Source: Methanobacterium sp. (GTDB lineage Archaea > Methanobacteriota > Methanobacteria > Methanobacteriales > Methanobacteriaceae). Taken from it: a DNA stretch of 12,437 bases. Each line of letters opens with the position of its first letter. The first letter of the stretch is position 1. Positions 4,895-12,190 of the stretch are shown in pieces. The notes beneath the pieces were generated by a model. The model saw nothing but the letters and a program-made list of their open reading frames with translations, was not told where the DNA came from and did no database searches. The position numbers and the translations under genes are program-made. The stretch is from positions 1 through 12,437 of the forward strand of contig PMWA01000016.1 in assembly GCA_003166335.1 (NCBI GenBank), in the 5' to 3' direction.

Positions 4895-5398
4895 TTAATA
4901 GATTGAAACTCTTTTAACTCCTTTGATCTTTAAAAATTCATTTATTAATTCACCTTTAACCTGTTTTTCCGTTATTATGGTGAGTAGGGGATTTTCTTCA
5001 AGTTCAGGGTCACCAGCATGGGCTTGTCTAATGCTAATATTTTCATGTGAGATGAGTTCCGTCGCCTGGGCTAATATGCCAGGATTATTAGCATGGGCTT
5101 CTATTTCAACTACACCAAATCCTAGATTGCCTGCTACGTTTTTTAGGAGTGTTCCCGCAGGATGTATATTCTCGAATATTTCTCTTAGTTGATGGTCTTT
5201 AAGTATAACATTGACTGTGGTTTTAATTGTTCTCCGGTCTACCCCTACTGATCTTGCTATGGCAACGTCTGTTATTTCAACGTCTCCACAGTATATTTTA
5301 CCATTTTCGGTAATGTGCAAACCGAGTTCCACTATTTTTCTGGCTATGCGCATTCTGGCGGGGTATTTATCGAATTTATGTTTTATTTTATTCCACAT
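4895..5398 (-). CDS. trpY: Tryptophan-sensing transcriptional regulator TrpY (HTH + ACT domain)
   Basis: 167 aa, divergent from trpE. Begins Met-Trp with W2 as the only Trp. HTH-like DVAIARSVGVDRRTI and ACT-like NPGILAQATELISHENISIRQ. SD GGTGA (rc 5406-5410). Same arrangement as Methanothermobacter thermautotrophicus trpY. Confidence 0.9.
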   Translation of the reverse strand: MWNKIKHKFDKYPARMRIARKIVELGLHITENGKIYCGDVEITDVAIARSVGVDRRTIKTTVNVILKDHQLREIFENIHPAGTLLKNVAGNLGFGVVEIEAHANNPGILAQATELISHENISIRQAHAGDPELEENPLLTIITEKQVKGELINEFLKIKGVKRVSIY

Positions 5399-5510: not shown

Positions 5511-5558
5511 TATGTATACTTATGTACACTAAAGCTTTAAATAATGCCATGATGTATA
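5511..5558 (+). promoter_or_regulatory. trpE operon promoter with TrpY operators (TRP boxes)
   Basis: A tandem 10-mer TATGTAYACT x2 (5511-5530) gives TGTATA-N4-TGTACA (5513-5518, 5523-5528). It lies just upstream of the TATA box TTTAAATA (5536-5543), with a third TGTATA at 5553-5558. The TRP-box consensus TGTACA is established for M. thermautotrophicus TrpY. Confidence 0.8.
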
Positions 5559-5646
5559 TAGCATTTAAGGTTTGAAATTTTTAATATCTTAAAATTTAGT
5601 GTTCTAAAAAAAATTTGATGAGAAAAAATTGTGATGGTGAATAATA

Positions 5647-5679
5647 ATGAAAGGCTGTGAATGTTTTTGGCGAATTTAA
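5647..5679 (+). other. Trp-codon-containing leader ORF MKGCECFWRI* overlapping the trpE 5' end; candidate +1 frameshift cassette (TTT TGG)
   Basis: SD GGTGA (5636-5640), 6 nt spacer, then ATG AAA GGC TGT GAA TGT TTT TGG CGA ATT TAA. A +1 shift from TTT (5665-5667) to TTT (5666-5668) continues GGC GAA TTT AAA in the TrpE frame. Confidence 0.6.
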
Positions 5680-7015
5680 AATTAAGATAAATGAACCTAA
5701 AACCACCGAACTAAATATTAACGCTCCATTCGAACTATTTAAAAAAATATATAATAACTATCCTTATGCATTCCTTTTAGAATCTATGGAAAGTGATAGT
5801 GGAATGGCCAGATTCTCAGTTCTGGGGTTTAAACCAGTTGTAACTTTAAAAGCGCATGTAAATGTGCTGGAAATAGAGAAAGATGGAGAAAAAGAAGAAA
5901 TTGATGTAGAAAATCCTTTTGATGAAATAAAAAAGGTTACGTCGTCAAGCAATGGAAAAAAAGGATTCCGGGGTGGATTAGTGGGGTACGTATCCTATGA
6001 GTCGGTGCGACACTTTGAACCAGTTGCAATAAAGGAAGGTTTTTATCCAGATTTTGAATTCGGATTATTCCTAGATGGAATAATATTCGACAGAATCCAA
6101 AACAAATGTGAATACGTAACCCTTAATGAAGATAGATCTGAAGAGATAAAAAATATTTCGAAAGAAGAATATGAGATAGATGGAATAAGCTTTAAGGAAA
6201 ATGGACATCATTTCTCGAAGGATAAATTTGAAGAAATGGTTCTTCAAGCAAAAGAGAAAATAAAAGAGGGAGAAATATTTCAAAGTGTCATTTCTAATGC
6301 CCGAGAATATACAATTAATGGTAACAAGCTATCTTTTTATGAAAGACTTCGGAGCATAAACCCATCACCCTACATGTATCATTTGAAACTGGATAACAGA
6401 GAAATAATAGGTTCCAGTCCAGAAATGCTGGTTAGAGTAGAAAACAGAATGATGGAAACATTTCCTATAGCTGGAACTATAAAACGTGGAGTTAACCAGC
6501 ATGAAGATGTATTACTAGAAAAAGAACTTTTAGCTGATGAAAAAGAAAAAGCTGAACATTTAATGCTAGTTGATCTGGCTAGAAATGATGTAGGAAAGGT
6601 AAGTAAATTTGGCTCAGTACAAGTTCATGATTACATGGGAATTAAAAAGTTTTCACATGTTCAACATATATTTTCCAGGGTTACTGGAGAGTTGAAAAAT
6701 GATAAAACTGCCGTGGACGCATTTAAGGCCATGTTTCCTGCTGGAACTCTTAGCGGAGCCCCTAAAATAAGGGCTATGGAAATAATAGATGAATTGGAAG
6801 AAATTCCCCGTGGACCTTATGGCGGTGCAGTGGGTTACTTCTCCCTCAATGGTAATGCAGATTTTGCAATAACCATACGAACCATGGTGTGTGACGGTAA
6901 TCAAGCAAAAATACAGGCCGGCGCTGGTATAGTTCACGATTCAATCCCAGAAAATGAATATTATGAATGCGAAAACAAAGCTAGTGCTCTTATAAATGCT
7001 CTTAGAGGGGACTAA
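5657..7015 (+). CDS. trpE: Anthranilate synthase component I
   Basis: Motifs FLLES, FRGGLVGYVSYE, GEIFQ, NPSPYM, GSSPEML, PIAGT, KEKAEHLMLVDLARND, FPAGTLSGAPKIRAM and QAGAGIV. The nominal GTG start lacks a well-spaced SD; true initiation may be at 5647 (see findings). Confidence 0.97.
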   Translation: MNVFGEFKIKINEPKTTELNINAPFELFKKIYNNYPYAFLLESMESDSGMARFSVLGFKPVVTLKAHVNVLEIEKDGEKEEIDVENPFDEIKKVTSSSNGKKGFRGGLVGYVSYESVRHFEPVAIKEGFYPDFEFGLFLDGIIFDRIQNKCEYVTLNEDRSEEIKNISKEEYEIDGISFKENGHHFSKDKFEEMVLQAKEKIKEGEIFQSVISNAREYTINGNKLSFYERLRSINPSPYMYHLKLDNREIIGSSPEMLVRVENRMMETFPIAGTIKRGVNQHEDVLLEKELLADEKEKAEHLMLVDLARNDVGKVSKFGSVQVHDYMGIKKFSHVQHIFSRVTGELKNDKTAVDAFKAMFPAGTLSGAPKIRAMEIIDELEEIPRGPYGGAVGYFSLNGNADFAITIRTMVCDGNQAKIQAGAGIVHDSIPENEYYECENKASALINALRGD

Positions 7016-7026
7016 GTGATTCGAAA

Positions 7027-7596
7027 ATGATTCTAATAATTGATAATTATGATTCATTCACCTACAACCTTTATCAGTTAATGGGAGAACTTCATGAAGA
7101 TATGATAATTAAACGCAACGATGAAATAAGCATTCAAGAGATAAAAAAAATTAATCCAGAGAATATAGTCATTTCTCCAGGTCCAGGTCGCCCGGAAAAT
7201 AAAAGAGATTTTGGAATCTGCACTCAAGTTATACAGAAATTTGGAAACGTAACACCGATTCTTGGAGTTTGTTTAGGACATCAAGGAATTTTCAATGCTT
7301 TTGGTGGTGAGATAATACGTACAGAACCTGTGCATGGTAAAACGAGCCAAATATTCCATACAGAAGACAGTGTGTTCAGAGGTGTTAAAAATCCTCTTTC
7401 TGCAGCAAGATATCATTCCTTACTTTGCAATGATGAAACAACACCGGAATGTATTGAAATCATTGCTCGAACCAGTGAAGGTAGGATAATGGCTATAAAA
7501 CATACTGATAATCCTATAATAGGACTTCAATTTCACCCGGAATCTGTGGGTACACCCGATGGAAGAAGGATACTAGAAAATTTCCTGGAGATGTAA
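7027..7596 (+). CDS. trpG: Anthranilate synthase component II (glutamine amidotransferase)
   Basis: IDNYDSFTYNL, ISPGPG, GVCLGHQ, RYHSL and QFHPES. Confidence 0.97.
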   Translation: MILIIDNYDSFTYNLYQLMGELHEDMIIKRNDEISIQEIKKINPENIVISPGPGRPENKRDFGICTQVIQKFGNVTPILGVCLGHQGIFNAFGGEIIRTEPVHGKTSQIFHTEDSVFRGVKNPLSAARYHSLLCNDETTPECIEIIARTSEGRIMAIKHTDNPIIGLQFHPESVGTPDGRRILENFLEM

Positions 7597-7601
7597 GTTC
7601 C

Positions 7602-8393
7602 ATGAAGTTCTCAGACATAATAAAGCAGCGAAGAGAAGTTTTAAATAAAGAGAAATTTTATAAACCTTTAAGTGAGTTAAAAGAGGATATTAAACGAATT
7701 AAAGTGCGAAAAAGCTTCAAAAATAGTCTTTTAAAAGAGGATGATGTATCCATAATATGTGAATACAAACCAGCTTCACCTTCAGCTGGTGATATATCAA
7801 ATTTAACAGTAGAGACGGTATTGCCATTATTTGAGAAGATGGGTGCCAGTGCAGCTTCAATTATAACTGAAGAGAAGTTTTTTAAAAGCAATGTTAATAA
7901 TTTGAAGATTGCTTGTAAAATAAGTGGTTTACCATTGCTTAGAAAAGACTTCATTTTAGATGAATATCAAATATATGAGTCAAGAGCCAATGGAGCTAAC
8001 GCAATTCTTTTAATGGCAGATCTTTACCCTAATTTATCAGAAGGAATTTTAATCACTCAATATTTAGGTATGGATGTTATGGTTGAGTGTAAAAATGAAG
8101 AAGAAATAAAGAAAGCCATAAATGCTGGCGCTGAAATAATAGGAATAAATAATCGGAGCTTTGAAGACTTCAGCATCAATTTTAACCGCACCCAGAAACT
8201 CTCAGCATTAGTACCCTCTGAAATAATTTTAGTATCTGAAAGTGGCGTAAAGAATCGTGATAATGTGAAGTTACTCTCTAGTTATGGTGCCGATGCACTG
8301 TTGGTTGGGACAAGTATAATGGAATCTAATGAAATGTCTCGAAAGATAGTTGAAATTATTAGTGCTGCTAAAAATTCTAGGCTGGAGCGATAA
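7602..8393 (+). CDS. trpC: Indole-3-glycerol phosphate synthase
   Basis: ICEYKPASPS, LLRKDFI, GINNR and VSESGV. The stop overlaps the trpF start (TAATG). Confidence 0.96.
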   Translation: MKFSDIIKQRREVLNKEKFYKPLSELKEDIKRIKVRKSFKNSLLKEDDVSIICEYKPASPSAGDISNLTVETVLPLFEKMGASAASIITEEKFFKSNVNNLKIACKISGLPLLRKDFILDEYQIYESRANGANAILLMADLYPNLSEGILITQYLGMDVMVECKNEEEIKKAINAGAEIIGINNRSFEDFSINFNRTQKLSALVPSEIILVSESGVKNRDNVKLLSSYGADALLVGTSIMESNEMSRKIVEIISAAKNSRLER

Positions 8394-9061
8394 TGAAAAT
8401 AAAGATTTGTGGAATAACTCGAGCTAAAGATATCATGGTATGCGAAGAAAATAATGCAGATCTTATAGGTTTCATAAATATTAGACGCTCCCAAAGATTT
8501 GTGGAACTAGATAAAATCAATGAACTCACCAGTAAGCTTAATAATAAAGATCACTCCGTTTTGGTAATTGAGCCGGATAATTTGGAAGACGCAAAAATAA
8601 TTTTAGAAAAATCTAATATAAAGTTAATACAACTTCATTCACTTTCAAGTGATGATATCATTAGATTAAAGGAAATAGGATCAATTCAAAGGCAATTGAA
8701 GATAATTAAAGCTATAGGAATTCCAAAAACAATTAATACTCGGAAAAAGGTTGAAATAGAAGATTTTGCCAGGGTTTGTGACTTTTTATTATTTGATTAT
8801 GAAAATGATGGAAAAAGCGGTGGCACAGGAAAACAAATTCCTCTTAAATTAGCTTTTGAAGCAGCTAAAATTGCGAAAAATACCAATGATGATATAAAAT
8901 TGTTTTTAGCTGGGGGATTGGATTTAAAACAGTTGAAAAATGAAGGAAAGGTTATAGGAGAAATATTTGATTTTATAGATGTCAATTCAGGTATTGAAGA
9001 TCAACCAGGATTTAAGAATGAGAAAAAAATTATAGAGCTTATAGAATTAGTAAAAGATTAA
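8393..9061 (+). CDS. trpF: Phosphoribosylanthranilate isomerase
   Basis: KIKICGIT, IQLH, SGGTGK, FLAGGL and IDVNSGIE. Confidence 0.95.
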   Translation: MKIKICGITRAKDIMVCEENNADLIGFINIRRSQRFVELDKINELTSKLNNKDHSVLVIEPDNLEDAKIILEKSNIKLIQLHSLSSDDIIRLKEIGSIQRQLKIIKAIGIPKTINTRKKVEIEDFARVCDFLLFDYENDGKSGGTGKQIPLKLAFEAAKIAKNTNDDIKLFLAGGLDLKQLKNEGKVIGEIFDFIDVNSGIEDQPGFKNEKKIIELIELVKD

Positions 9062-9107
9062 TTCCAATTTATAAAATTTATAAAATAAAATTTAAGGTGA
9101 TTTTTAG

Positions 9108-10289
9108 ATGATTGATAATGGTAAATTCGGGAAATATGGGGGTATTTTTGTTCCAGAGCTTCTCATACCTGCCTTAGAAGAACTGGAAAACGCCTTCATG
9201 AAATATAAAGATGATAAAGATTTTAATTCTGAACTGGATTATTACTTAAGAGAATTTGCTGGAAGACCCACTTCCTTATATTATGCTCGTAACCTTTCAG
9301 AGAAGCTGGGATGTAGAATTTACCTTAAAAGAGAGGATATGCTGCATACGGGTGCTCATAAAATAAATAATACATTAGGACAGGGGCTTCTAGCAAAGCA
9401 TATGGGTAAAAAAAGATTAATAGCAGAGACTGGTGCAGGGCAACATGGTATCGCTACTGCAGTAGTAGGTGCATTACTAAAAATGCCCACCGAAGTTTAT
9501 ATGGGCAGTGAAGATGTTGTAAGACAGAAATTAAATGTTTTTAGAATGGAACTTTCTGATGCAAAGGTTTTACCTGTAGATAGCGGTTCCCGTACTCTTA
9601 AGGATGCTATAAATGAAGCTTTAAGGGATTGGATTAGTAATTTAGATGACACTCACTACTTGATCGGCTCTACAATGGGACCTCATCCTTACCCCACCAT
9701 AGTGAAGCATTTTCAGAGTGTCATTGGAAGAGAAGTTAAAAAGCAAATCATGATGAAGGATGGTAAGCATCCTGATGTAATAATCGCTTGTGTTGGTGGT
9801 GGAAGTAATGCTATCGGCATCTTCTCCGAATTCATAAAGGATGAGGAAGTGAAGTTAGTTGGTGTTGAAGGGGGTGGAAATGGGGTAAACAGTGGACAAA
9901 CTGGGGCTACTCTCTCGGTTGGAACTGAAGGCGTATTGCATGGTTCTCTTTCATTTGTACTGCAAGATGATTATGGACAAATAAATGAAGCTCATTCTGT
10001 GTCTGCAGGACTTGATTACCCTGGTGTAGGTCCTGAACACGCTTATTTGAAAGTTACAGAACGTGCTAAATACGTAGCTATAACTGATAATGAAGCTATT
10101 CGTGGTTTTAAATTACTCTCCAAATATGAAGGGATAATACCGGCTCTTGAAAGCGCTCATGCCATTGCTTATCTAGAGAAATATGCTCAGTTGAGAGAAA
10201 ATAAGGGTAAAACTATAGTGGTAAATTTATCGGGGAGGGGAGATAAGGATATGTTCTTAGTTGCAGAGAAGATGGGTGAGGAAATATGA
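9108..10289 (+). CDS. trpB: Tryptophan synthase beta chain (TrpB1 type)
   Basis: [21 protein letters not shown] (PLP lysine), [30 protein letters not shown] and [17 protein letters not shown] at 9095-9100. Confidence 0.98.
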
Positions 10290-11101
10290 TGAATGAGAAT
10301 AATTCAGTAACTGAAAGTTACGATGATATGTTTAAGAGGGTTAAAGAGAAAGGTGAAGGAGCTTTTATACCATTTATTGTTGCCGGTGATCCTGATTTTG
10401 AAACTTCTCTCCGGATGGTAAAGATGATGGTGGATGGCGGTGCAGACGCATTGGAAATAGGTTTTCCTTTTAGCGATCCTTTAGCAGATGGTCCTACAGT
10501 ACAGACAGCAAATATTAGGGCTTTAAATTCTGGAATGAATACGGATATAGGTTTTGAATTTGTAAGAAGGATTCGGAAATTCACTAAAATTCCTATTGGA
10601 TTATTAGTGTATTATAACCTCATATTTAAAATGGGAGTAAATGAGTTTTATAGAAAAGCCCATATAAGTGGAGTTAACGGTGTTCTTGCAGCGGATATGC
10701 CTCTTGAAGAGGCTGATGTCGCCGTAGAGGCTGCAAGAAGTAATGGTGTAAATGAAATCTTCCTAGCTGCTCCAACTACAAGTAATGAGCGACTTGAGAA
10801 AATAATAGGGTTATGTTCTGGTTTTCTTTATGTGGTATCAGTTATGGGTGTAACAGGAGCTCGAAGTAAACTTAAAATCAGTACTATAGAATTGGTGGAG
10901 AGAATGCGTAATCATACTCAACTTCCTATTTGTGTGGGTTTTGGGATTTCTAAACCAGAGCATGTGTCAGAAGTTATAGCTGCTGGTGCAGATGGAGCTA
11001 TTGTAGGAAGCGCACTTATTGATGTTATAACAGATAACTTAATGAATCCTGAATTTAAAGTACGTGAATGTTGCCAGATTATGAAAAACGCCACCCAATA
11101 A
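10286..11101 (+). CDS. trpA: Tryptophan synthase alpha chain
   Basis: [32 protein letters not shown] and [12 protein letters not shown] overlap with the trpB stop (alternative start 10289). Confidence 0.97.
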
Positions 11102-11131
11102 AGAATTTTTATAATATTGAAGTGTTTTTTT

Positions 11132-12190
11132 ATGAAGATTAACGAATGTCTAAAGAAAATAGTGTCTGGTCAAGATTTAAGTGAAGATGAATCTTACCAG
11201 TGTATGATGAAAATAAAAAATGGTAATGCTAGTGAAGTGGAGATTGCAGCTTTGTTGACAGCTCTTTCAATGAAAGGTGAAACAGTGAATGAAATAACTG
11301 GTTTTGCAAAAGCTATGCGTGAAGCATCTATAAAAGTATCTCCCCCACATGGACGTATTTTAGTGGATAGCTGTGGAACAGGCGGTGATAAATTTAAAAC
11401 GTTTAATGTAAGCACATCTGCAGCTATTATAGCTGCCTCCTGTGGAGTTACCATTGCAAAACATGGAAATCGTAGTATTACAAGTAAATGTGGTGGTGCT
11501 GATATTCTAGAATCTTTGGGGGTTAACATTAATTGTGATGCTGAAGGTGTGGAGAAGTGTTTGGAGGAAATAGGATTAGGATTCATGTTCGCACCTCATT
11601 TTCATCCGGCTATGCAAAATGTGATGCCCATTAGGAGAATGCTGGGGATTAGAACTATTTTCAATATTTTAGGTCCTTTAACTTCACCGGCTAATGCAGA
11701 TATCCAGTTGTTGGGAGTTTTCGATCCAAGTTATGTGGAGTTAATGGCTAATGTTTTGAATAAGTTAGGTGTTAAACGGGCTTTAGTGGTGCATGGATTT
11801 GATAATGTTAATCAACCAGCTATGGATGAAATATCAACATTAGGTCGGAGTAAAGTAGCTTTTTTGAGTGATGGTGTGGTTAAGATTCAGGAATGGTATC
11901 CTGAAGATTTTGGTTTGGAATATAGTATTCCGGAATATGTTGAAGCTCCTGAAAGTCTTTATGAAAATTTAGAAGTTATTACTAGTGTTTTGAAGGGTAG
12001 AAAAAATAGTATTGATGATGAAGCCCGGTTGAACCTTTGTCTTGTAAATGCTGCGGCTATTTTATTTATCGCTGGAAAGGCGGGTAGTCTTAAGGCGGGA
12101 ATGAAGATGGTACGTGAATCTGTTGAAAATGGTGATGCTTTTAGTAAATTGAATGAATTCATTAGAATAAGTAATCAATATTGTAAATAA
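11132..12190 (+). CDS. trpD: Anthranilate phosphoribosyltransferase
   Basis: DSCGTGGD, FNVST, AKHGNRS, FAPHFHPAM and RTIFNILGPL. The ATG at 11132 (352 aa) is preferred over the TTG at 11117. Confidence 0.96.
   Translation: MKINECLKKIVSGQDLSEDESYQCMMKIKNGNASEVEIAALLTALSMKGETVNEITGFAKAMREASIKVSPPHGRILVDSCGTGGDKFKTFNVSTSAAIIAASCGVTIAKHGNRSITSKCGGADILESLGVNINCDAEGVEKCLEEIGLGFMFAPHFHPAMQNVMPIRRMLGIRTIFNILGPLTSPANADIQLLGVFDPSYVELMANVLNKLGVKRALVVHGFDNVNQPAMDEISTLGRSKVAFLSDGVVKIQEWYPEDFGLEYSIPEYVEAPESLYENLEVITSVLKGRKNSIDDEARLNLCLVNAAAILFIAGKAGSLKAGMKMVRESVENGDAFSKLNEFIRISNQYCK

Follow-up and report, generated by a model that had tools for sequence, protein, structure and literature searches.

In which frame do ribosomes enter trpE, the first gene of the tryptophan operon of this Methanobacterium sp.? 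The stretch of DNA analysed here (12,437 nt, in the following called the window) represents contig C73 of a 2.49 Mb genome that is 99% complete, and the sequencing runs matching this genome are peat and permafrost metagenomes. The window carries trpY on the minus strand and trpEGCFBAD on the plus strand, with the following features:

4895–5398, minus strand: trpY, divergent Trp-responsive repressor (NF053754, TrpY_fam, above cut-off)
5513–5528, no strand assigned: two TRP-box-like hexamers, TGTATA and TGTACA (from the sequence)
5536–5543, plus strand: TATA-box-like element TTTAAATA (from the sequence)
5666–7015, plus strand: body of trpE, anthranilate synthase component I (TIGR01820, above cut-off)
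7027–12190, plus strand: remaining operon genes trpG, trpC, trpF, trpB, trpA and trpD, with two Trp codons in all (trpB and trpD)

TGTACA is reportedly the TRP-box consensus of Xie and Reeve (2005). Transcription of trpE is predicted to start near 5566, so that the mRNA would include a Shine-Dalgarno (SD) sequence and an ATG at 5647, both described below. A TTTA[AT]ATA motif was found 25–147 nt upstream of this ATG in 103 of 110 relatives. The body of trpE contains no Trp codon, and the seven enzymes together contain only two Trp residues. Around the start of the gene, four further features were identified:

5636–5640, plus strand: initiation SD GGTGA, 6 nt before an out-of-frame ATG (-7.7 kcal/mol)
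5647–5679, plus strand: ORF0, encoding MKGCECFWRI followed by a stop, one base behind the TrpE frame
5652–5660, plus strand: internal SD-like element AGGnnGTGA, a predicted frameshift stimulator that includes the annotated start GTG 5657–5659
5665–5671, plus strand: predicted shift site with TTT 5665–5667 in the P site and TGG 5668–5670 in the A site

Anti-SD energies were computed against the 16S tail GATCACCTCCT, taken from three relatives; pairing before GTG 5657 amounted to -0.8 kcal/mol, compared with the value given above for ATG 5647. The initial annotation had placed GGTGA correctly as the SD serving this ATG, and the sequence likewise confirmed that the ATG frame ends at 5679, that the TrpE frame is closed by TAA/TAA/TGA at 5642–5650, and that GTG 5657 lies 16 nt from GGTGA and has no SD of its own. 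It had overlooked AGGnnGTGA, a second anti-SD match of -6.9 kcal/mol that ends 4 nt short of the TTT codon. A one-base skip at TTT-TGG, as had been suggested, computationally opened a 455-aa product from ATG 5647 without any Trp, in which TTT 5666–5668 is followed by GGC 5669–5671; started from the GTG, TrpE has 452 aa, which is the form present in public collections. Based on this layout and on the comparisons below, we consider it likely that the trpE cassette is a Trp-sensing programmed +1 frameshift entered from the SD-led out-of-frame ATG. That a real +1 shift takes place appears very likely from the sequences, and, given a shift, a response to Trp would be just as strongly expected.

Among the other genes of the operon, trpD (window positions 11098–11134) lacks a clear SD before TTG 11117 and ATG 11132 (-0.1 and -2.9 kcal/mol, respectively), while the remaining trp genes have clear SDs. 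The 5' region of trpB2 displays an ordinary in-frame ATG.

An out-of-frame start next to a run of five T's (5664–5668) could simply reflect an assembly error, and the initial annotation had singled out this run for confirmation. It was upheld by contigs from three DNA runs of three studies (X8, X9, and X13), which revealed no indel, and by an RNA-library contig (X16) that begins at 5630, spans 5630–5900 and likewise displays T5 without an indel; run X1 and the RNA runs X17 and X18, which did not bridge the site, were left out. As contigs and not raw reads were used, rare variants of the T run would be invisible in this comparison. The pattern across genomes agrees: a 24-nt pattern including the ATG had a single occurrence in each of 149 genomes, out of 329 searched in the phylum, the reversed control gave 0 matches, and this search, which is independent of the peptide anchor used below, was positive in 15 of 30 genera. 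An assembly error at the T run was thus ruled out by the DNA-run contigs, the RNA contig and the cross-genome matches, and the SD-led out-of-frame start of trpE is a genuine and deeply conserved feature. Within the 2.49 Mb genome the 14-mer core occurred a single time and the motif had no other copies. A scan of metagenomes with the pattern resulted in 84 stretches, 65 of which were followed by a TrpE-like frame; the other 19 were taken as chance matches. Scanning 1829 long frames of the whole genome for SD-led out-of-frame ATGs yielded about 50 candidates, of which trpE was, by eye, the only one with a Phe-Trp junction in this position. In the same genome (G000), SD-led ATGs out of frame with a long ORF were also seen at C16:25936, C64:16384, and C25:4889, all on the plus strand; their frames resemble, by eye, N-termini of a hydrolase, an aminotransferase and a histone, and these three are probably assembly frameshifts.

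For comparison within the Methanobacteria, trpE 5' regions were anchored on the TrpE-frame peptide x-[NS]-x-F-G. The first batch, from which five duplicates and one non-methanogen had been dropped beforehand, gave 110 anchored regions out of 114, and the second gave 28 out of 30 close homologues and none out of 10 distant ones (about 45% identical). After merging of four identical regions, 134 anchored and 6 unanchored close regions were obtained. The cassette ATG-N7-GTGARTRYTTTTGG kept its core in 134 of these 140 distinct regions, covering three Methanobacteriales families, a count that overstates independence because of the kinship among the genomes. The proposed combination of SD, out-of-frame ATG and TTT-TGG is therefore kept across relatives. 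A start codon was located six codons upstream of the TTT in 133 of 134 regions (132 ATG, 1 GTG), so that the single exchange of ATG for GTG still leaves a start codon; in the remaining region (G217, L006 = L124) one base is missing and the ATG is thereby in frame. An SD of at most -4.5 kcal/mol preceded the ATG in 130 of 134 relatives, and pairing before the ATG was stronger than before the GTG in every one of them. The A-site codon was TGG throughout (134/134) and never a stop; ORF0 never ended before it, its stop floating 0–18 codons after the TGG. Directly after the shift, GGC was used in 122 of 134 regions, vs 9.5% of Gly codons genome-wide. In all 134 the P-site codon could re-pair in the +1 frame with three of three bases. 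Genes for tRNA-Phe and tRNA-Gly were not found among the 27 tRNAs of the assembled genome.

Genera with a distant-type trpE did not show the cassette pattern, and their loci displayed an ordinary in-frame ATG in nine of ten cases, the tenth being misanchored. The six close regions without a cassette (L097, L118–L120, and L127 of genus g6, and L121 of G201) carry a near-cognate codon behind the SD at normal spacing, namely ATT in g6 and ATC in G201, and no in-frame ATG, GTG or TTG at the start position. These codons are possibly non-canonical starts that hold translation low.

Which frame is under selection was assessed by parsimony on a tree of 132 regions. L040 and L041 were left out, as both have indels 7–12 codons 3' of an intact cassette (with N's in L040) that were taken as assembly errors. 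The TT and GG of the shift site are fixed by the Phe-Gly anchor and were given no weight. Four sites that are silent in the TrpE frame showed 0 changes, compared with medians of 17 for conserved downstream 2-fold codons (minimum 1) and 27 for 4/6-fold codons (minimum 14); one downstream control site, with 1 change, was also nearly invariant. Tolerated changes, in turn, leave the residue of the ATG frame the same or similar and replace that of the TrpE frame: GAA/GAG, TGT/TGC, and TAT/TAC are silent in the former and turn the N-V of the latter into S, A, I or T. As the pattern reverses 3' of the TGG, the substitutions indicate that selection acts on the ATG frame as far as the Trp codon and on the TrpE frame beyond it. 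The same data bear on the ideas that a DNA- or RNA-binding protein recognises the 14-mer, or that the layout is accidental. Its near-complete nucleotide invariance in Methanobacteria would suit a binding site, but the tolerated changes obey the code of the ATG frame, and a second archaeal phylum (see below) preserves frame, register and NTT-TGG in sequences that are otherwise quite different, so that we hold this reading to be very improbable. A search of Rfam returned no family at gathering score for the cassette region.

Within ORF0, GTGA of the internal element was invariant in 134 of 134 regions, and an internal anti-SD match of at most -4.5 kcal/mol was present in 118 of them vs 10% of control windows. 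The G at -8 is invariant in the Methanobacteria and in the second phylum. With the 7 nt before GTGA randomised, the null was -5.3 ± 0.4 and the observed value -6.7, which gives modest support for an extended SD, kinship being ignored in this estimate. The 3' end of the match is conserved 3–4 nt before the P codon, adjoining the E-site codon, and the gap of 4 nt between GTGA and TTT falls inside the range of 4–8 nt usual for initiation in this genome. The most fitting interpretation of GTGA is an internal SD placed four bases ahead of the P-site codon, similar to that of prfB, and the GTG start codon can be read as a by-product of it; basal initiation at the GTG may occur alongside the shift. 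The SD of prfB pairs with a different part of the 16S tail. As the spacing is that of ordinary initiation and the pairing involves another part of the tail, we infer the stimulatory role of GTGA rather than read it directly from the match.

As an outgroup we used the phylum of G329, which includes a Nitrososphaerota record; labels of similar proteins were Thaumarchaeota, Nitrososphaerota and Aigarchaeota. Ninety loci were taken, namely the best 30 of one search and every second new match of 121 listed, and 79 of them revealed a TrpE-frame Phe-Gly near the 5' end. All 79 have NTT-TGG one base back (CTT 49, GTT 18, ATT 10, TTT 2) with TGG in the A site, while TTT accounts for 237 of the 400 other Phe codons there. 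An out-of-frame start within 10 codons was likewise found in 79 of 79, being ATG in 74 and located at -4 codons in 59. Forty of these ATGs have no SD, and 28 of the 40 follow a TATA box at a distance of exactly 22 nt, where a leaderless start is expected. In L271, L274, L276, L277, L279, and L332, the ATG is only two codons before the slippery codon, and five of the six have a TTG five codons upstream as an alternative start. An internal SD of at most -4.5 kcal/mol was detected in 79 of 79 loci vs 17% of controls, in the same register as in the Methanobacteria. The sequences themselves are varied (55 distinct 18-mers), and the ORF0 peptides differ between the phyla, so that a nascent peptide common to both does not account for the signal. 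The preference for GGC is absent (GGA 33, GGC 31, GGT 8, GGG 7), and 17 of 24 full-length TrpE proteins carry one to five Trp residues downstream. Perfect re-pairing in the P site, as claimed initially, applies to the Methanobacteria; in the second phylum, 77 of 79 sites re-pair with two of three bases (CTT, GTT or ATT to TTT) and two with all three.

Eleven loci were without the motif, and five of the six of these placed on the TrpE tree sit among cassette-bearing ones. This tree was built with a quick method that leaves deep forks open, and it does not tell whether the cassette arose once. One locus, L296 of G683, has the same SD-led ATG and a site that is one base shorter, so that the frame is read through and Gly is replaced by Asp; unless this is an assembly error, it would be the predicted shift product fixed in the DNA. 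The one-base-shorter forms of G217 and L296 are either true revertants or assembly errors. Four TrpE proteins outside both groups (P0016, P0019, P0023, and P0032) also begin with the Phe-Gly motif, hinting at further cassette-bearing lineages.

The second phylum also helps to judge a shift during transcription, in which RNA polymerase slippage would drop one U and put part of the mRNA in frame. While the T5 run of all Methanobacteria regions would lend itself to this, there are merely three T's at 77 of the 79 second-phylum sites, the site-spanning RNA contig retained all five T's (contigs hide rare variants), and slippage leaves both the internal SD and the Trp codon unexplained. We rate it as extremely improbable.

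A different possibility is that TrpE starts at the in-frame GTG or another codon, and that ORF0 is an overlapping leader which dampens or couples initiation by occlusion, by drop-off and restart, or by termination-reinitiation, with no frameshift at all. The GTG is the annotated start and, counting against a frameshift, has never been lost in the Methanobacteria (134/134); 45 of 79 second-phylum loci have it in the corresponding position, and in the cassette-less G201 the triplets ATC-AAC-GTA correspond to GTG-AAT-GTT of relatives, so that an ancestral start may have been here. On the other hand, this GTG is without an SD in all 134 regions and has never changed to ATG. In the second phylum, the remaining 34 loci have GGG, GGT, GGA, GCA, GCG or GTA in its place; 60 of 79 have some in-frame NTG before the conserved core, SD-led near the site in 11, and 19 have no in-frame ATG, GTG or TTG there. 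Coupling also fits poorly with the spacing: it works best at -4 to +3 nt and drops steeply with overlap, according to the accessible text of PMC12548453, and the variable stop of ORF0 lies well 3' of the GTG. Neither conserved structure nor a structural frameshift stimulator was found around the site, folding being no better than that of shuffled sequences (0 of 34 and 1 of 34 windows with z below -2). Moreover, the GTG would be hidden under any ribosome stalled at UGG, and a biosynthetic gene would be shut off when Trp is scarce, which is the wrong sign; only with a frameshift does the regulatory sign fit a biosynthetic operon. Taken together, a start within the TrpE frame is an improbable account of the cassette. 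Two further candidates at the site were rejected, namely a third-frame TTG with normal SD spacing, whose ORF length is unconserved (3–31 and 2–45 codons), and a -2 slip, which fits more poorly than +1.

Under the favoured +1 frameshift, a ribosome starting at the ATG would read six codons and then carry peptidyl-tRNA-Phe on UUU, its A site occupied by UGG and its 16S tail paired to GUGA. With ample Trp-tRNA, UGG would be read and translation would stop a few codons later (off). With scarce Trp-tRNA, the ribosome would wait, the P-site tRNA would re-pair one base forward, GGC would be read and TrpE would be made (on). Early termination may also reduce transcription of trpGCFBAD by polarity, which in archaea is attributed to FttA in the accessible part of PMC12548453. 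Such a switch would not act alone and would add a translational layer beneath repression by TrpY. TrpY itself has its sole Trp at residue 2, a possible second sensor of Trp-tRNA located opposite the cassette, on the other side of the shared promoter region; the idea of a sensor in the Trp residue of TrpY reportedly goes back to Xie and Reeve (2005).

The shift could also be real and constitutive, with slow decoding of UGG setting a low TrpE ratio and no sensing of Trp. Comparative data on the shift do not measure regulation, Trp control is already supplied by TrpY (PMC6737238, as far as accessible), and the near-cognate ATT or ATC at the start position of cassette-less trpE genes in the same clade may likewise keep translation low. 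A fixed ratio could be set just as well by a stop or another rare codon that pauses the ribosome, but the A site contains TGG in all 134 and all 79 loci; moreover, this UGG belongs to the first gene of an operon that is nearly devoid of Trp, and the Methanobacteria form occurs once per genome in the whole-genome pattern search. We therefore regard a constitutive shift as unlikely and Trp sensing as the preferred reading. With more reserve, we lean towards the wider view that in several archaeal phyla a single hungry UGG, a few codons past an out-of-frame start, gates TrpE and, via polarity, the operon, as a counterpart of attenuation and as starvation-induced frameshifting that was selected to sense an amino acid.

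Among known systems, the closest parallel is the autoregulatory +1 frameshift of prfB, encoding release factor 2 (accessible text of PMC5009743). Like prfB, the trpE cassette has a short zero-frame ORF0 with its own start (133/134 and 79/79) and a +1-frame product, a P-site codon with U as the next base (in the second phylum, CUU-U as such in 49 of 79 loci), a putative internal SD ending beside the E-site codon and, as the predicted sensor, slow decoding in the A site. Unlike prfB, where the A-site UGA is sensed by RF2, the cassette has UGG with Trp-tRNA supply as the predicted signal, and it would operate on an archaeal ribosome, control a biosynthetic operon and shift as early as 4–6 codons past the start, on mRNAs that are often leaderless. 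The cassette is thus best explained as working like prfB outside the prfB family.

The predicted slip in the P site while a scarce aminoacyl-tRNA is awaited also resembles the hungry-codon shifts of Gallant and those of Ty1, ABP140 and EST3 (PMC5009743 and PMC7026636, both in part), and the Ty1 site CUU_AGG_C has GGC as its first new-frame codon, as at trpE. In contrast to those hungry-codon shifts, the site is conserved across phyla and lies in a gene that would relieve the starvation. In bacterial trpL attenuation and E. coli pheL, a control codon in a leader reports the level of charged tRNA to a biosynthetic operon. The cassette would likewise be a short leader with a control codon, but ORF0 has a single Trp codon up to the site in place of a tandem and no detectable terminator/antiterminator structure. 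ORF0 overlaps trpE, and the leader is predicted to become the N-terminus of the enzyme. Frameshifting at pheL is described as incidental in the accessible text of PMC5009743.

Methanothermobacter thermautotrophicus has the same gene order trpEGCFBAD with a divergent trpY and TRP-box-like sites as in the window. There, TrpY acts on transcription initiation, while the cassette forms an element of its own within the mRNA and goes unmentioned in the accessible part of PMC6737238, from which both statements on this organism are taken. Frameshifting on archaeal ribosomes, as proposed here, has precedents in fucA1 (-1), a predicted case in magnesium chelatase, and the halovirus HSTV-2 (+1), which are listed in the recoding section of PMC8211752. 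No description of the cassette was found in the accessible full-text literature, and an older mention in subscription papers is possible.

If confirmed, the cassette would be a chromosomal +1 programmed frameshift in Archaea; the recoding section of PMC8211752 lists no such case and none sensing a metabolite. It would also represent hungry-codon frameshifting used as a nutrient sensor, a type of shift yielding proteins with starvation-specific functions for which the 2016 review (PMC5009743), in its accessible part, knows no example. Furthermore, it would mean that elongating archaeal ribosomes use internal SD pairing, like bacterial ones at prfB, and that the start codons of TrpE are misannotated in many genomes. 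The cassette occurs in Methanobacteriales families that include cultured methanogens.
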